Below, in pieces: positions 1-33,212 of a DNA stretch of 64,000 nt. The notes beneath the pieces were generated by a model. It was not told where the DNA came from, ran no database searches, and worked only from the letters and a program-made list of their open reading frames with translations. The stretch spans positions 3,390 through 67,389 of the IMG/VR virus record IMGVR_UViG_3300029568_000024. One strand, written 5' to 3'. The translations under genes and the position numbers were made by a program. This DNA is from a virus. Positions within the stretch are counted from its first letter, which is position 1. The number at the start of each line of letters is the position of its first letter.

Positions 1-3000
1 AAACTAGTCATATCAAACTTCCGCGTATCCATCCAATATCTTGGGTATGGAATGTTTACACGCTGCAGGTAATCATAAGTATATTGATCTGGCTGACCAT
101 TTAAGAAGTCAGCAAAGATTGGCATAATGGTTTTCTCAGTATACCTGTTGATATATACATCACCAGCAAATATGGGAGAGGAAGAAAATTTAGTTTGAGG
201 ATTATTAGCTGATACTAGTTCTACAGTACCCCGCATTTGAATCTGCTTAATACCATCAAGCTGACCATACTGATTTTCAGCATCAAACTTTAAAGCACCA
301 TAAACTGCTGATATATCTCTCTTTTGTTCTTGCTCAGGATTCCTTAAATATTTATTAGCTAAAAGCTCAAAAAATGGACCATCGCCATCTCCGCTAAGAA
401 CATATCTTGATTTATCTACAATACTAGGATCATCTATATTATCTGTAGTAGCAACTGCTACGGTGTCTGGTCTAAATAGATTATTAACCTTAAAACCGTT
501 AAAAGACTGATATGTGCTACCTATATAGTTTGAGTCTTCATTTCTAGTCCTATACACTTGACCATTTGGTCTAGTAGTAAATGTATCATAGAAGCCATGA
601 GAGTTATGCTTAAATGCAAAATCCTCTTCCTTAATGAGACCATAGATTAACTCTATAATTTCATTTCCACCATCTGCAATATTGAAACGAGCAATAAAAT
701 AACCAAAGGCTGCTTGTAGAAACTTTGGAAGATTGCCACTAGGATGTTCAACCTTATATCTTTCAATATTCTTACCAGAGTCTGTACCTGGTGTACGAGA
801 AGCTAAAGCAAGATTTTTAGTTTGCCCAACTTGCATCGTAATATTAGCAGCTCCTTGTCCCAGCCAAATAGTGCTTATATCGAGTACATCTTTTAGTAAT
901 AACTCTGCTAGCAAATCAAACAAACTACCTATCCCAAAGAGATTTGCAACTTGTTCAGCACTAATCAATTCAAATGTAGACCATGTATTTATTGGAAACG
1001 GTACATTAGGTGCATATGGTACCGATCCCCCAGTACCTGCAACTAGTGTCTGATCATTAGCAATAAGATTATTGTTTATACTTAAACCTTGTAGTTCAGA
1101 CTCCTGAGTTCCTCTTATTCTTGAAATTGCATAGCCAATACCAATAATACTAGCAATGATAGATGCAATATTTCTGATTAATTTATTCTGAGGATGATTC
1201 TCTGACTTAATAAAATGCCCTACAGATGTACCGGAAAGATCTCCATATAGTCTTGTTTCATAAGCATTCAAGAAAGGTCTTTTGAACATCAACTCTGGTG
1301 AGTGGAATGTAAAGAACTTCTTAGCTACACTTGTAAGTGGTTTAAAGTCTTTAATAGAATCAGCATACTTTTGAGTACCATCTGTTCTATGATCATCTCT
1401 TCTATTACCATCATGGAAATAAACATCAGGTCTTAGATCATTGTATGGATAGTTTGGATAAAGACCTACAGGATTACCCCCGGTCTGTCCACCCTCAGGA
1501 ATATTGTACTTACGCATATTCCTAAATATGCCCTTGGCTAGAATAGACTTCTGTCCTTCTCTTGAACCTCGTAAGATCTCATAACCAACTATATTTGGTA
1601 TGACAGTGCCATCATTAAAGACCGGAGGTTTGATATCACTAAACTGTACACCCAGCACTCTAATCCTACTATTAGAATCATTTGTCAAGTGTAACTCAGG
1701 CCCACGTTCTTCAGTTGGCATCTTATGGTGGCGAATGTACTTACCGCATAAGTCAAAACGAGAGTCTCCCGTACCACCAATGTTTACTCCTGTAGTTACA
1801 TCTGTGTAAGTAGCATTCCAGATTTCAGGTTGTGTTGCAGGATACTTCTCTGTAGACTGCCAGTAACTCATCTCACCCTTGGCAATAACCAAACCTCCAT
1901 CTCCTGTAGGATTATTTAATCCTGTCGCCTGAATAGTAGATGTATCGTATACCTGAAAGTTTTTCTCTCTAGAGCTTAAAACATTAAGACCTCCGCCACC
2001 TGCTAGACTATCTTCACTACTATTGATCTGCTCATTAAACTGATTCCTAAAGGAACTCTTTGGTGGTCTGCCTGGAATATGATAAGACTTAGATCTTTCA
2101 CCAGTATTATAAATCCATCTGATAAAAAAAGCATACTGCTCATCACGCATAAAGCCAGTGCTGTTACCTCCCTTGCGATAATACTCAGCAGGATATTCAG
2201 CAACTACCCATTCAGTTTTAATCTGATTAGCTCTGGGTTGATAGTTAAAATCAAATTGTTCTGTAGGACCTTTACGTATAAGCCAATCATTAACAACAAA
2301 CATTGCATCTGACTTCTCATACGCAGGGCTTCTAGCTGGTAACAATTCTAATGGGATACTGACTAATGACTGATCTATATAGTCAACAGAAATAGAACTA
2401 GTCTCAGTGCTATACAACCCAATCTTCTTGGCTACATAATTATTTGCGTTGTTGCTAAGAATAACTAATTCAAAAAACTCAAAGTCTTTATCCAGATTAG
2501 ACACCTTAATATCCAGAGACCCTGCAGTGCCGTCATGATCAAAAAGACTCTGTAGATTAGATACACCAATATAGTCTGTTACTCTCTGCTCATTTACAGT
2601 ATAGGCTATATAAGCTTGATACATACCATTCCTTAAAGATCCTCCATCGGGAGCTTTGGAAAGTTTCACAATAGGAGTATCAAGAAGAGGTGCTAGTCGA
2701 AGTGCCTCACAATCTAATATGGTTGTGTCTTCATAGATAACACAATCATCACCAGGTGTAGAGGTAACAGTCTGCTGATAGGGAATATTGTCTAAATTAA
2801 GAGTGCGAGATGGATTTCTCCCATCATCCCAGTATACTTGCCAACTACAGTCAAAGTTTTCTTTTGCGGCACCTTGAATTAAATTCTCTTTGTTGAAGTT
2901 AAGACACTTGGAATTGACCAAAGTTTTATACTCGCATTTACTATCATCAAAGAGACCTATCTCAGAGTTAGTGTTATCAGTGGTATACAGCACCCACTCA

Positions 3001-3256: not shown

Positions 3257-4135
3257 TTATACAGGATAACTCTTGAACATATTATAGTAATTGTGATACT
3301 GCGCTCTTCTGTTTAACCACCAGATCTTCTGCATCTCTTTAAAGTCTGGAGTATTTACAAATCCAAGTGCGTTATTTCTTGCAGCTCTCAAACGTCCTTC
3401 TATTAGACCTAATTGATTAGCCACATTCTCTCCGGCAAAAACCATGTTCTCAAGAATCCTCTGCTTCAAGGCATACTCGTAGTATTCATTGCAATAAGGA
3501 TGATCCAGTACAAGCAATCTTCCTTGAGAGTCTTCCATGGCTCCTTGGAAACTGATATATACTTTACCTGTTGTAAAGTTTGTAAGAAGATAACCGTCTT
3601 TTATTTCAGCAATATCTGATGCTTGCTCTCCGACATTTGGACAATCACAAGTAGCATCATTTACATTCTGGATCCTCAAAGGATAGAATGCAGTGTAAGT
3701 TCTATACTCTCCACCGCCAATCTTCTGAACTAACTGATACTGATTCTTGTCTTCACAGGTCTTAATAACACATACCTCTTTACATTCCGGATCATCACAT
3801 GGTCCGGACTCATCTGGAGCTGGTACATAAGGCACAGGGTTATCTGTCTCTACATGTGTACCAGACGGCATCTGAGTAGAGATGCTATAGTCACCACACA
3901 TAAAAGCATAGTTCAAAGAAAAGAAATCACTTGGAAGCTTGGTCTTACCATGCTCTACATCCAGCACCACTTCTTTGGTTCTATTGATTCTTAAACCAAG
4001 ATCATAATTTACTCTCGTTGCAACTTTAATTAACTGCTGAGGTTCAATCATCCCCTCCATTGCATATGTAGAAAAATCTACTGTTACATCTTCAAGTAAC
4101 TGATCAAAAGTTCTATACTTATGTGATACGCTCAT
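3257..4135 (-). CDS. Putative tail ring/tubular protein with Cys-rich insertion
   Basis: 292 aa, directly upstream of the stabilization gene; helical N- and C-termini as in crAss-like ring proteins; internal PCDDPECKEVC segment. Confidence 0.5.
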   Translation of the reverse strand: MSVSHKYRTFDQLLEDVTVDFSTYAMEGMIEPQQLIKVATRVNYDLGLRINRTKEVVLDVEHGKTKLPSDFFSLNYAFMCGDYSISTQMPSGTHVETDNPVPYVPAPDESGPCDDPECKEVCVIKTCEDKNQYQLVQKIGGGEYRTYTAFYPLRIQNVNDATCDCPNVGEQASDIAEIKDGYLLTNFTTGKVYISFQGAMEDSQGRLLVLDHPYCNEYYEYALKQRILENMVFAGENVANQLGLIEGRLRAARNNALGFVNTPDFKEMQKIWWLNRRAQYHNYYNMFKSYPV

Positions 4136-4138
4136 GAT

Positions 4139-4426
4139 TTACCATTTTACTTTATGAGACCAGTAACGTGCTGAAAAAATATCCGGCTTAGAATCCTGGG
4201 CATTATGCCTAGCGTAGTAACTCTTCTTTCGTGCTTTATCTTTCGCACTCTTAGGATTCTTACCTGCACCCTTTACACCTTGCTGACCAAAGCGGATAAG
4301 CTTTGTCTTATCACCTTTCTTAGCTACAACAACGTGTGACTTTGTAGGATGGCTTGGTGTCCTCTTAGGTTTGTTATAACCTGATACACCAGCTCTAGTT
4401 AACTTTGGATCCTTCTTAGCTGCCAT
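4139..4426 (-). CDS. Small Lys/Arg-rich protein (RFGQQG...SARYWS family of aquatic phages)
   Basis: 95 aa, very basic; motifs KLIRFGQQG, ARKKSYYARH, SARYWSHKVKW. Confidence 0.65.
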   Translation of the reverse strand: MAAKKDPKLTRAGVSGYNKPKRTPSHPTKSHVVVAKKGDKTKLIRFGQQGVKGAGKNPKSAKDKARKKSYYARHNAQDSKPDIFSARYWSHKVKW

Positions 4427-4429
4427 GAT

Positions 4430-4963
4430 TTATGAATGTGCTTTAGCTTGAATAATAATCCATCTTGTTCCATCGGACCAAAGAGTAATACCTTCAAAAT
4501 GTTGATTAATCTGATAGTTGGTATTACTTTCATCTATAAACTGACCATTAAAGGTTACAAGCTCAGCATGATTGCTTCCCTGCATAGAGGCATCAGATAT
4601 AAAACGAATAACTCTATACTTGTAAGCTGCTGATGTTGCATCTGGTAAAAGCACTTGATAGGTAGCATTTCCAACTCCTGTGTGCTTTAGATACACCATC
4701 CAGTCATCAGAAGCTGTAAGATCAAATACATCTCCACCACTACCTTCAATCACCCTCGGTATAATAAACTTTGTACCTTCTAATACATAGGATTTTAAAT
4801 CCTTTGCCTTTATCAAATTAGAATCAGCCTCGGGTTCTGGTTTTAATTCTTTCTTTACAGTTTTAGTTCTTTTACTAATAAAAAAGAAATCTTCATCACT
4901 AGGAATAGATATAAACAACCTACGTTTAATCATCCCCATTATGTCTTGTAAAATATTACTCAT
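4430..4963 (-). CDS. Putative fibre/decoration protein; N-terminus paralogous to 5682..6350
   Basis: 177 aa; MSNILQDIMGMIKRR start; beta-rich C-terminus ending ITLWSDGTRWIIIQ. Confidence 0.45.
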   Translation of the reverse strand: MSNILQDIMGMIKRRLFISIPSDEDFFFISKRTKTVKKELKPEPEADSNLIKAKDLKSYVLEGTKFIIPRVIEGSGGDVFDLTASDDWMVYLKHTGVGNATYQVLLPDATSAAYKYRVIRFISDASMQGSNHAELVTFNGQFIDESNTNYQINQHFEGITLWSDGTRWIIIQAKAHS

Positions 4964-17761: not shown

Positions 17762-19381
17762 TTAGAATGATCCGCCTGTAACAGGGTTTCTCATAACGAT
17801 CTTGAGAACCTTGGTTGGATCCTTCACCCAGATAGCTGGCATGGTTTGAGTCATCATAACTCTGTAGCCATTAAAGTTACCGGTAGAAGCAAATCCTTGG
17901 CTGCGACCCATGTAGTCCATAGTACCATTCTGGTAGAACCACTTCAGTTGATTATCCCAAGAAAGCTTCAAGAGATAGATGTTATCATTTCCTTCCTCAG
18001 TTACATCAAAGATAATGAAACTGTAAGAGCTCAATGGACGTCCATCAATCAAAGGATTCTCAACGTCATTAGTGTGCAGGTTGTCAAACGCTGGGTTCAA
18101 GACAAACTTAACGTTAGCCAAGAATGGAATGGTGAAGCTTGTGTAAGCAAAACCAAAGTCAAGATCCATTCCAGAACCTGAAACAGCACCAATGTCAGAA
18201 GCATTCTGTACGAGACCAGAACCATAAACCTCATCAGCGATAGCTTTGTTGATCAACTGCATACCACCAATACCTGTTTGAACAACAAGCTTTCTCTGGG
18301 GGTCTGGACCCTTGAATTCAACTTTACCCTGGTAGAAGTTGTAAAGCTCAGACTTGAACATATCCAATGTGAACTGAGACTTGTTATAAACTCTCTTGAA
18401 AGAGTTGTCTAACTGAGACCAAAGACCAACAGACAGTCTGATATCATCTGGACCATCTTGCTTGATTCTACCGCCTTTACCCCACATCAGGTAAGTTTCG
18501 ATGTCATTAGCAATCTTAGATAAGTGAGCTGCTTCGAGATTAGTGATAAACGTTCTTGTCAAAGTACCGTTTTCAAAGGCGTCTCTAGCACCTGCCTTAC
18601 CCATGTTTGCAACCAACTGCTCAATGCTTGAAACAGAAGGATTGTTAGGATCCTGGTTGAAGTTTCTCCAGATCTCAGTTACAGGTACAGTACCGTCAGC
18701 ATTCAAACCACCCTTGATCATAAGATCAGCACGGCTAGAAATAGAATAGTGTACATGTGCTTCAGCGCCTCCTACAAAGTTGTAGAATTCTCTGAATCCA
18801 GAACCGGTCTCAATGTCTGAGAACCTCTCACCATACTCACCACGTGCAGAACCTTTTCTGAAATACTTTGTGCCAGATACTAAGTACTTGCTAGCATCCA
18901 AAGTAGCAGAATTGTCATTGTTCACAAGCTGAACGGTATAGATAAACCCGTCACCAGCTGGAAGAATGTCATCCGCAGTGATGTAAAGTTCAAGACCATT
19001 ATACTTGTCATAAGTGATGATATCACCATGACCAAATGATCTCTTAGATAATTTGATCTTGAAAGTTGTACCGTCTCCGCCGAGGTTGGTTTCACTTTCA
19101 ATGTTTCCTACAGAGAAAGGAAGATCCTGTGCTACAGGAGTCTGCCACTTATACTCACCGCGAGCATTGTCTACAAGAATTGTATTCTTCCCACCAAAAG
19201 AAGCCATCTGATACAAAGGCATTTCTACCTTCTGGGTCATAGCCCAAAGATCAACTGGTCCCATATCCATAGGCTCAGCAGAACCGAGCATCTGGGTAAG
19301 GTGATAAGAATCAACATGAGAACTAGCCTTATAGCTTGTATCTCTGAGGAAGATTCCGTTGTTTAAAACTGGAGTTGCCAT
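17762..19381 (-). CDS. Major capsid protein (crAss-like)
   Basis: 539 aa; terL-portal-scaffold-MCP order; DIETYLMWGKGG and RLSVGLWSQL segments; strong terminator follows. Confidence 0.85.
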   Translation of the reverse strand: MATPVLNNGIFLRDTSYKASSHVDSYHLTQMLGSAEPMDMGPVDLWAMTQKVEMPLYQMASFGGKNTILVDNARGEYKWQTPVAQDLPFSVGNIESETNLGGDGTTFKIKLSKRSFGHGDIITYDKYNGLELYITADDILPAGDGFIYTVQLVNNDNSATLDASKYLVSGTKYFRKGSARGEYGERFSDIETGSGFREFYNFVGGAEAHVHYSISSRADLMIKGGLNADGTVPVTEIWRNFNQDPNNPSVSSIEQLVANMGKAGARDAFENGTLTRTFITNLEAAHLSKIANDIETYLMWGKGGRIKQDGPDDIRLSVGLWSQLDNSFKRVYNKSQFTLDMFKSELYNFYQGKVEFKGPDPQRKLVVQTGIGGMQLINKAIADEVYGSGLVQNASDIGAVSGSGMDLDFGFAYTSFTIPFLANVKFVLNPAFDNLHTNDVENPLIDGRPLSSYSFIIFDVTEEGNDNIYLLKLSWDNQLKWFYQNGTMDYMGRSQGFASTGNFNGYRVMMTQTMPAIWVKDPTKVLKIVMRNPVTGGSF

Positions 19382-30344: not shown

Positions 30345-30525
30345 ACATACAATATACAAAGACTCCCGCTCAATTTAGTTTGTGCAGATAATAAAAAAAA
30401 TTTTTGCCCAAAAAATTACTTGTGTGTTTGGCTTTGTGTGAGGGTCCTACTATTCTGCTCCCCGGCTATTTTCCGGGCCTTGTGGCCCCCGTAGGCAAAT
30501 GTTTAACTAAACCCAAATTAACTCC

Positions 30526-31128: not shown

Positions 31129-31437
31129 ATGCCTGAGATTACATCTTACATTGCTGATTACTTTGTCCATGAGGATGGTCTTATCTCTTATATCTCTGTT
31201 ATGGAGGAAGGAGGTGAGACAATTGATTGCCGGATAGAGTTCATTGATGGTTCTGCTCTTATGTTAGATCAGATCCAGGAATGTATGAAGACCGACGTTC
31301 CTGAAGCTGAGGCTTCCAAAACTTTCAAAGCTCTGGTTCAGACTTACAAATGCTATAACCGTTTGTTTGTTGACCCCAGAGTGTGTCCTCTTTGTAATGA
31401 GATGCTGGAAGATACGTGCAGCCTGATTAGCTGCTAG
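31129..31437 (+). CDS. Hypothetical early protein, C-terminal CxxC..C
   Basis: 102 aa; CPLCNEMLEDTC. Confidence 0.6.
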   Translation: MPEITSYIADYFVHEDGLISYISVMEEGGETIDCRIEFIDGSALMLDQIQECMKTDVPEAEASKTFKALVQTYKCYNRLFVDPRVCPLCNEMLEDTCSLISC

Positions 31438-31604
31438 TCCGTGGCCCACGTGGATGAAGGGAATGAGTGGTGATTCACTCTAACGGGGAAAAGCGTGGGA
31501 GAGAGACCCACGTGTAACTACTGACGAGTAGTTATCTATTAAGTTAGCTTTCAATCAAACTCCACCCGTGCGGGGAGTCTTATAGCCGTGGACGCACGGT
31601 TATG
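31438..31604 (+). ncRNA. Structured leader / riboswitch-like element
   Basis: CCCACG(31445-50) or CCCACG(31507-12) can pair with CGTGGG(31494-99); hairpins GAGTG/CACTC, AACTACT-GACG-AGTAGTT, ACTCC/GGAGT, ATAGCCGTG-GACG-CACGGTTAT. Confidence 0.55.
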
Positions 31605-31733
31605 AGCACCTCTACCGCTATGAAAAAGATTCGTGATACCCAGAAGCAACGTGCAGAGATGCAACAGCTTCGCAGACTGACACGCACTCGTGTCAAGCCT
31701 AATAAAAAGAAGGATTGGGCACCTTCAGAGTAA
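31602..31733 (+). CDS. 43-aa basic peptide (not in track)
   Basis: MSTSTAMKKIRDTQKQRAEMQQLRRLTRTRVKPNKKKDWAPSE. Confidence 0.5.
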   Translation: MSTSTAMKKIRDTQKQRAEMQQLRRLTRTRVKPNKKKDWAPSE

Positions 31734-32269: not shown

Positions 32270-33170
32270 CATGTCTATAGGTTGTTTAACCCGCCAGATA
32301 TGGTGGGTTAGCAGCCTGAAGCATACGTTATTGTTACCCTCAGAGTTTAGATACTCATGGTGTATGCGTTAAGCCTGCTTGACAGGTTACTGAAACAATA
32401 GGTCAGCCTTCGTGACCATAGGATAATCCAGTGATGGAATAAAGTGTATCCCTTAAGAAAGGATACGCCATGCATTAGCATGCCACTGAAAGGTAGTTGC
32501 ATATCTATGTCTTGGAATGGCCCTACAGGGTATAAGAGATATAGACACCATTAGGAAGTGGTGTTGAGTGAGAAATCACAATAAGAATGTAGCTAGGTAA
32601 TGGTAGTACCAGTCGCCAACTGGGGATCCATTATCAATGTTTATGTTTGATGTTGCAAGAAATTGCATGTCATGATTAAACATAGTGATTAGACTTGGCA
32701 GTCGAAAGCAGGGTGGAGTTGATAGCTAAACTACTCAAAAGGTGGCATGCTATACAATCAACAACCGCTTCACTCATCGTTCCTTCTCTTATCTCCTAGC
32801 CTACAGGGCATATATGATCAAGAGCAAAAGTGTTGTTGAGTATTGAGTTTACAATGTTCTTATTGTGCTGTAATATGCACAGACTCTAAGGCCGCAAGCC
32901 ACAGAGTAAACGGAACGAAGTATCATTGCATTTGGTGTGAGGCATCACATTTATCCCGGCAGGGAGGTCAGTGAGAAAAGTGAAGTTATATGACTCAATA
33001 CAGGGATGGCGGACATCTAAATCCGTGAACATCTTATCTACCTTCAGTAATGGAGGTGTGTGTATGTGGGGAAACCTGCTAAAATGATATGCAACTTTAT
33101 GGGTCAACACTCAGCCCTGGTGTCATGCACAAGAAAAGCCTTCACGTGGCGCATGATGTAAGTAAGCTTA
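32270..33170 (+). ncRNA. Candidate large ornate structured RNA (~900 nt)
   Basis: No credible ORF; >15 local hairpins, several GNRA-capped, many G-U pairs; long-range helices 32476-87/32741-52, 32495-505/33086-96, 32577-90/32854-67, 32840-48/32993-33001, 32758-65/32832-39. Boundaries approximate. Confidence 0.75.
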
Positions 33171-33212
33171 TGCTGAAACTAATTTTCTTATTCACCATTC
33201 AAACCTAAACCT

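Follow-up and report, generated by a model that had tools for sequence, protein, structure and literature searches.

Phage RNA operators can be read by a protein via a hairpin loop, as in the N-boxB system of lambda and P22 and at the MS2 operator bound by the coat protein, in which the replicase AUG lies. In T4-type phages, stem-loops designated promoter-early stem-loops (PeSLs) have been described (Arbiol et al. 2010, PMC2839356; Comeau et al. 2014, PMC4122927). The study of phage phi14:2 identified no common motif upstream of early transcripts (bioRxiv 10.1101/2020.03.07.982082), and the phi14:2 paper also reported abundant intergenic RNAs of unknown function at the g004-g005 and g005-g006 junctions. 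Little is understood of how crAss-like phages control their early genes, and the RNA element described here offers a handle for finding proteins that act on early messages; its reach is limited to the one narrow lineage of uncultured phages from which it is known so far.

The window, meaning the whole 64,000-nucleotide stretch of DNA that was analyzed, derives from a 73.5-kb IMG/VR virus record. An ORF on the minus strand (17762-19381) matched the Crassvirus major capsid family, and the top match of this capsid among isolates was that of a Leptolyngbya phage, at 27% identity, with Cellulophaga phages next. Because of the family match and the low identity to the nearest isolate capsid, we take the source to be an uncultured, distant crAss-like phage; the related contigs were all from marine or aquatic metagenomes. 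The Flavobacterium or Bacteroides host of the earlier note is a tentative suggestion. Large structural genes occupy the minus strand up to approximately 30 kb, and a block of small plus-strand genes, with products of unknown function, starts at approximately 30.5 kb. The element sits between a 102-aa early ORF (31129-31437, plus strand, from the ORF list), the last ~28 nt of which overlap it, and a 43-aa basic ORF (31602-31733). A GOLLD RNA lies 730 nt downstream of the element on the same strand and in the same early block, with three ORFs between the two.

An alignment of eight variants placed the whole conserved element, in its long form, between AGAUACGUG and GGUUAUGAGCA (31410-31610, plus strand, as are all parts described below). 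At approximately 200 bases it is larger than the span given in the earlier note (31438-31604). The element begins with a 5' hairpin (31413-31452) composed of an outer helix, P0, and an inner helix, H0. P0, which appeared in both the MFE and the centroid folds, consists of 6 bp formed by UACGUG (31413-31418) and CACGUG (31447-31452); in six variants it was 100% paired, one change producing a wobble, and it explains the 5' limit of the conserved block. H0 pairs CAGC (31419-31422) with GCUG (31430-31433) and contains one double change, from C-G to U-A, in L001. A purine-rich single strand, GAUGAAGGGAAU (31453-31464), follows; it showed no variation in six variants, and its GGGAAUG was retained in the short-form paralogue too. 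Hairpin H2 (31465-31480), formed by GAGUG and CACUC, was 100% paired in eight variants; one pair changes from U-A to U.G, and RNAalifold favored a different register, so the pairing given here is provisional. A second purine-rich single strand, UAACGGGGAAAA (31481-31492), of which the AACGGGGAAAA part was invariant in the alignment, leads to hairpin H3 (31493-31513), the local hairpin of the earlier note. Its 7 bp join GCGUGGG to CCCACGU across an AGAGAGA loop, and they carry a double change from G-C to A-U in L029 and a change from U-A to U.G in L025.

The 3' half of the element contains two hairpins with the same GACG tetraloop, as had been noticed earlier, and both are longer once G.U pairs are counted. 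The first, H4 (31514-31535), has 9 bp and an invariant GACG loop at 31523-31526; five of its nine pairs vary, each still pairing via wobble. It is followed by an unpaired linker, AUUAAGUUA (31538-31546), that was invariant in the eight long-form variants; elsewhere in the window this motif did not occur beyond chance. Next is the variable hairpin H5 (31559-31578), which was present as a hairpin in every variant and differs in sequence and length (ACUCC/GGAGU in the window, AAGACUAA/UUAGUCUU in the L004 type). The last hairpin, H6 (31579-31606), has 12 bp, an invariant GACG loop at 31591-31594 and a double change from A-U to U.G in L033, and was 99% paired. Its 3' strand, CACGGUUAUGAG, includes an ATG (31602-31604), and in the window H6 is followed by GAGCACCUCUACC. 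The two tetraloops lie ~65-75 nt apart, and H4 and H6 were the only GACG-loop hairpins on the plus strand of the 64-kb window. GACG hairpins were located by a direct descriptor scan, as MAFFT could not align the H4 of the paralogue. The fold was 3 sd more stable than dinucleotide shuffles on either strand, and on the plus strand none of 200 shuffles was as stable.

Rfam searches at the gathering score identified two tRNAs only in the whole window, and at E values up to 10 the region 31380-31680 produced only a chance snoRNA match on the minus strand. No family was matched by the element, in agreement with the earlier statement that it could be assigned to no known riboswitch class. The GOLLD model matched 32711-33117 and gave no match in the element. 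The CUGACGA of the H4 loop was rejected as a hammerhead motif, since no stem I could be drawn and no hammerhead was found even at E = 10. On the plus strand of 31400-31620 no terminator-like site was found, no U-tract follows any of the hairpins, and no sigma-70-like (-35/-10) promoter was called at 31400-31620; by eye, TATAAT is present in the H6 5' strand of some variants only, and the window has TATAGC. The motifs GTGGACGCAC, TATTAAGTTA and TAGTCCG occurred in the window at or below chance frequency and the combined pattern CGTGCA...TAGTCCG was in none of the loci, which argues that the element is not a recurring promoter or operator motif. One copy of the element was present in the 64-kb window and two in L025, so it is not a signal repeated across the genome. 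A blastn search with 1.4 kb around the element matched none of the phage records, and an IMG/VR scan with the upstream 102-aa protein gave no match. IMG/VR scans with element motifs returned a single close relative only, and a scan for the short-form H4 returned 19 matches, all by chance and apparently in coding sequence.

Nine copies were obtained in total, eight of them distinct long forms and one a short form. The copies were collected from the downstream 86-aa gene, together with one metagenome pattern scan in which five of 12 matches were by chance (L021, L022/L024, L026, L030/L031). The long-form set consists of the window, the L001 type, the L004 type, L023, L025, L029 and the partial copies L033 and L034. 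All nine belong to one narrow marine crAss-like lineage of low divergence, so covariation rests on few events. The copies were 91-96% identical when H5 was left out; the 250 nt upstream were ~50-58% identical. The conserved block begins at AGAUACGUG, ~28 nt before the stop codon in the window, and ends with GGUUAUGAGCA in all copies. Relatives of the upstream 102-aa ORF stop at -44, -26 or -15 nt from a common anchor, a 1-nt indel changes the reading frame across the block, and elsewhere the block lies beyond the stop codon. Since frames and stops differ across the block among the variants, conservation is at the level of nucleotides and not of protein.

Pairing was assessed in the eight-sequence alignment over the curated helices H0, H2, H3, H4 and H6, which together comprise 288 pair cells. 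On the plus strand 99.7% of these cells were paired, compared to 84% for the same helices on the minus strand and 26-43% for controls with slid partners. The plus-strand cells included 45 G.U pairs that would be A.C mismatches on the minus strand, three pairs had both partners changed, and 13 additional pair types were seen. The G.U cells and the difference in pairing between strands indicated that constraint acts on plus-strand RNA, and the cis-encoded structured RNA proposed earlier for this strand is borne out by the same statistics. Outside H5, variable columns made up five of 89 unpaired and 15 of 74 paired positions. This lower variation in unpaired columns indicates that loops and linkers, which are the most constrained parts of the element, are read by their sequence. 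The GACG loop was invariant in all 18 hairpins of the nine copies and AUGAGCA in nine of nine copies, and the H6 3' strand and the GAGCA tail were nearly invariant in all nine, this 3' strand being more conserved than the 5' strand. We therefore regard the element as a real conserved plus-strand structured RNA that falls outside any described family.

The second copy in L025, ~1 kb downstream of the first, is a short form in which a different 5' hairpin is followed by AGGGAAUG, H4, a different H5, AGUCUU, H6 and the GGUUAUGAGCA tail. Its H4 has an unrelated 8-bp stem with an identical GACG loop, and the inner stem of its H6 has two double changes, with the GACG loop and the GGUUAUGAGCA tail unchanged. 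AGUCUU is common to the short and long forms, and H2 and H3 are missing from the short form. A metatranscriptome contig tracks the window to 31465 and then diverges into the same short-form H4. Because the short form keeps the twin GACG hairpins and the tail and drops H2 and H3, the former are taken to be the core of the family and the segment with the proposed toggle to be optional. Upstream of the short-form copy, ~230 nt of L025 (~560-790, minus strand of the locus) contain no ATG ORF of at least 30 codons on that strand and several G+C-rich inverted repeats; this stretch may be a further structured RNA.

At least five different sequences follow H6 among the copies, and gene content switches between relatives exactly at the element tail. 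In the window and L001, H6 is followed by the small basic ORF; in L004, from which the small ORF is deleted, directly by the leader of a 91-aa gene; in L023, L025 copy 1 and L029 by a ~250-nt insert; in L033 by a 65-aa gene that appears truncated in L034; and in L025 copy 2 by a 143-aa gene. No constant downstream gene is linked to the element across the variants. The ~250-nt insert of L023 is flanked on both sides by the 10 bases TTATGAGCAC (2066-2075 and 2319-2328), a repeat that suggests recombination or duplication at the element tail. The small ORF of L023 gains a new in-frame start, with MST... replacing MKK.... Where relatives have no copy of the element at this position, an unrelated AT-rich stretch with three hairpins takes its place and is followed by TAATTAAGCTTA (L009 2266-2500; L032 1-250; L029, minus strand, ~270-470), and TAATTAAGCTTA resembles the invariant linker ATTAAGTTA of the element. 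In five of the eight copies with a distinct junction sequence, a gene start behind a C/A-rich leader is located 13-32 nt past H6. This C/A-rich, G-poor leader, (T)CACCTAAACC...CAC-ATG, precedes early genes of this phage group (window 30497-30525; L033 148-175; L032 ~225-255; L025, minus strand, ~400-430). It occurs with or without the element upstream (without it in L032 and at a second L029 site) and is probably a true translation-initiation region.

The small basic gene has a 37-aa conserved core (MKKIRDTQ...; 31620-31733, plus strand) and would encode 43 aa if the ATG at 31602 were used. The ORF was also found in L001, L023, L029, L032, L033 and L034. It occurs in six element-bearing variants, and none was present in the locus DNA examined for L004 and L025. 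In L029, L032, L033 and L034 its start is the equivalent of the ATG at 31620, just past an in-frame stop, and in L023, L029, L033 and L034 it lies 260-700 nt from the element. Nine distinct codon changes among seven variants, four synonymous and five non-synonymous, weakly support a coding function. A homologue search with the ORF returned only its own cluster, and comparison to PHROGs, Pfam and the protein atlas gave no usable family match. Within the ORF, a perfect 7-bp hairpin, UGACACG-CACU-CGUGUCA, is found at 31678-31695 (plus strand). Nucleotide conservation of the small ORF region nearly equals that of the element, and RNA-level constraint within this region is conceivable.

RNA-library contigs from four studies cover parts of the region, and one of them runs from the upstream ORF into the element, of which it includes the initial 90 nt. 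As assembled contigs, these give no ends or strand, and their depth is a poor measure of abundance; contigs over the element had a depth of 7-12x, similar to that of neighboring genes. No contig covers 31598-31704, and contigs break at 31497/31517, observations that at 7-12x are uninformative on processing or absence. Further downstream, a ~760-nt RNA (32332-33092, plus strand) formed a separate contig in each of four metatranscriptome runs, at depths of 614x, 346x, 71x and 8x, compared to 3-19x for its neighboring genes; one of the contigs carries adapter letters at both ends. This RNA matched GOLLD (RF02032) with 72.6 bits and E = 1e-18, below the gathering score of 150. Just 3' of it, at 33111-33186 (plus strand), two HDV-family ribozyme models were matched, CPEB3 at E = 0.002 and HDV-F-prausnitzii at E = 0.2. 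In Cellulophaga phage phi14:2 (L054, NC_021806), a gene-poor stretch before g006 (4031-4502, plus strand) lies inside the intergenic-RNA region of that phage and matched tmRNA (RF00023) with 46 bits (gathering score 47) and E = 2.6e-16. One of the abundant phi14:2 intergenic RNAs may be a phage tmRNA.

Our leading reading, which we hold tentatively, is that the element is an operator-type module in the early message that would be read by a putative trans-acting protein or nuclease and would also act as a recombination joint. The element is a modular multi-hairpin RNA of ~200 nt within the rightward early transcript. Its core consists of the hairpins H4 and H6 with their GACG tetraloops, with the variable hairpin between them and the GGUUAUGAGCA tail after them, to which the long form adds the 5' hairpin, two further hairpins and the invariant purine-rich single strands. 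Under this proposal, the recognizing factor would be an RNA-binding protein or a nuclease, of phage or host origin, that reads both GACG loops together with the conserved single strands. Its binding would decide what happens to the early message at the element, either by processing or stabilization or by controlling access to the next cistron; the C/A-rich leader of that cistron usually starts directly after H6. Candidate outcomes are processing, stabilization, translational control or antitermination. A trans-read site is suggested by the invariant loops on stems that are free to change, by the invariant single strands, by two identical tetraloops ~65-75 nt apart and by the position of the next leader, 13-32 nt downstream in five of eight copies. 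The conserved sequence would double as a recombination joint for the exchange of early gene cassettes, a role we infer because the sequence is so conserved. Set against the operator reading, the small basic ORF, the obvious candidate binder, is missing from the element-bearing locus DNA of L004 and L025; the nine copies represent one narrow lineage with few covariation events; and one or two copies per genome do not make a genome-wide repeated signal. The element also illustrates how conserved non-coding joints enable small early genes to be swapped among related marine phages.

The element could instead be a passive punctuation or recombination cassette, its hairpins terminating, attenuating or protecting mRNA ends with no specific trans-factor involved. 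Its intergenic location among small early genes, the exact coincidence of the element with differences in gene content between relatives, the duplicated TTATGAGCAC joints in L023 and the precedent of the PeSLs (PMC2839356, PMC4122927) are all consistent with such a role. However, the stems are less conserved than the loops and single strands, a pattern that simple terminators or stabilizers do not need; the element has no U-tract and no terminator-like or promoter-like site; and it occurs in one or two copies compared to ~50 PeSLs. We consider a purely passive cassette possible but unlikely.

A translational operator or thermometer is less likely again; here the next gene, whichever it is, would truly start at the AUG hidden in H6, and melting of the AU/GU-rich lower stem, or binding of a protein to it, would tune translation. 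AUGAGCA is found in every copy and the 3' strand of H6 is the more conserved one, as such a mechanism would have it. In four contexts (the window/L001 type, L033, L034 and L025 copy 2) this AUG shares the frame of the ORF that comes next, and a 3-nt length difference between L033 and L034 preserves the frame. In L004, L023, L025 copy 1 and L029, however, the AUG opens unconserved frames of 4, 20, 20 and 32 codons, respectively, and the division into four contexts in frame and four not in frame is not significant (p ~0.13, an estimate). Furthermore, the downstream genes have their own AUG behind a C/A-rich leader, and this leader is also found without the element in L032 and at the second L029 site.

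It is doubtful that the element is an independent, trans-acting small RNA of ~200 nt, transcribed from a promoter of its own. The sharp 5' and 3' boundaries of the conserved block, which are independent of the flanking genes, and the abundant non-coding GOLLD RNA in the same early block would fit such a molecule. Yet no promoter-like or terminator-like site was called at the element ends, and contigs join the element to the upstream ORF at 7-12x, compared to 346-614x for GOLLD in the same runs, with contig depth being a poor measure.

The earlier note had proposed a ligand-sensing, bistable riboswitch that controls the buried start of the 43-aa ORF, which now appears quite improbable. The parts from which it was built are present: the direct repeat CCCACGTG was found at 31445-31452 and 31507-31514, CGTGGG at 31494-31499 and GAGTG/CACTC at 31465-31469/31476-31480, and the ATG at 31602-31604 does open a 43-aa ORF from within the last stem, with all three bases inside the 3' strand. 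Alternative pairings do exist, the fold is more stable than shuffles, and the invariant purine-rich junction strands resemble those of aptamer cores. The pairing of GTCCGTGG with CCGTGGAC suggested to open the last hairpin can be drawn, but the two are not Watson-Crick complements and require two tandem G.U pairs. The toggle itself fared worse. In L029, CGUGGG is changed to CGUGAG and the second CCCACG to CUCACG, so that the local hairpin is compensated and the closed fold is broken by a C.A mismatch, and in the short form H4-H6 are retained although the toggle is missing altogether. For the first CCCACGUGG, pairing is possible with at least four segments (the P0 strand, ACGGGG, CGUGGG and the second CCACGUG). 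Covariation does not tell these apart, and as each is either invariant or compatible through wobble, they give no basis for inferring bistability. Occlusion of the start of the 43-aa ORF is likewise not supported as the conserved function, as neither H6 nor its AUG varies in copies that have no small ORF (L004, L025) or have it 260-700 nt off (L023, L029, L033, L034). The conserved start of that ORF is the equivalent of the ATG at 31620 and not the buried ATG at 31602, the downstream gene is inconstant, and no Rfam aptamer was found at E = 10. We give similarly little credence to a model in which the twin GACG hairpins are boxB-like sites for the 37-aa Arg/Lys-rich peptide, mediating N/nut-style read-through into later early genes, with a crAss-type virion RNA polymerase or the host polymerase as the target; if true, it would be the first transcription-control signal known for crAss-like early transcription, for which neither a promoter nor a control motif has been reported. 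Least probable is an element that acts at the DNA level only, through CACGTG-type operators, iterons or recombination linkers and with no RNA function, for although three ACGTG palindrome-like sites, many CGTG repeats and a position at mosaic boundaries are compatible with it, duplex DNA sites would not give the strand-specific substitutions observed, with 45 G.U pairs on the plus strand.

Several known systems share features with the element. Like riboswitches, it is a structured, leader-like RNA with invariant junctions, possible alternative pairings and a terminal hairpin that sequesters an AUG; unlike riboswitches, it matched no model, has a toggle without covariation support and is not tied to a single downstream gene. 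GOLLD (RF02032) is similarly a conserved non-coding RNA in the same early block and on the same strand, but it is a separate RNA, with three ORFs in between, no GOLLD match in the element and a far higher contig depth. The PeSLs differ in having a conserved sigma-70-like promoter, which the element does not, and in being single G/C-rich stem-loops present in ~50 copies, whereas the element occurs once or twice per genome, lacks a terminator U-tract and has, over ~200 nt, five to seven helices together with invariant loops. In both cases a conserved intergenic sequence with stem-loops separates small early genes of unknown function within a plastic region, extends from the stop codon of the preceding gene to the initiation region of the following one, and is positioned at the joints of insertions, deletions or replacements. 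With respect to the N-boxB and MS2 operators, the loop of the element is a GACG tetraloop and not a GNRA-like pentaloop or the MS2 loop, no boxA was found, and the candidate basic ORF is missing from the locus DNA of some element-bearing relatives. The element nevertheless shares with these operators short hairpins with conserved loops and stems free to change; one of its hairpins, H6, contains an AUG as does the MS2 operator, and in the window a small arginine/lysine-rich ORF lies just downstream.
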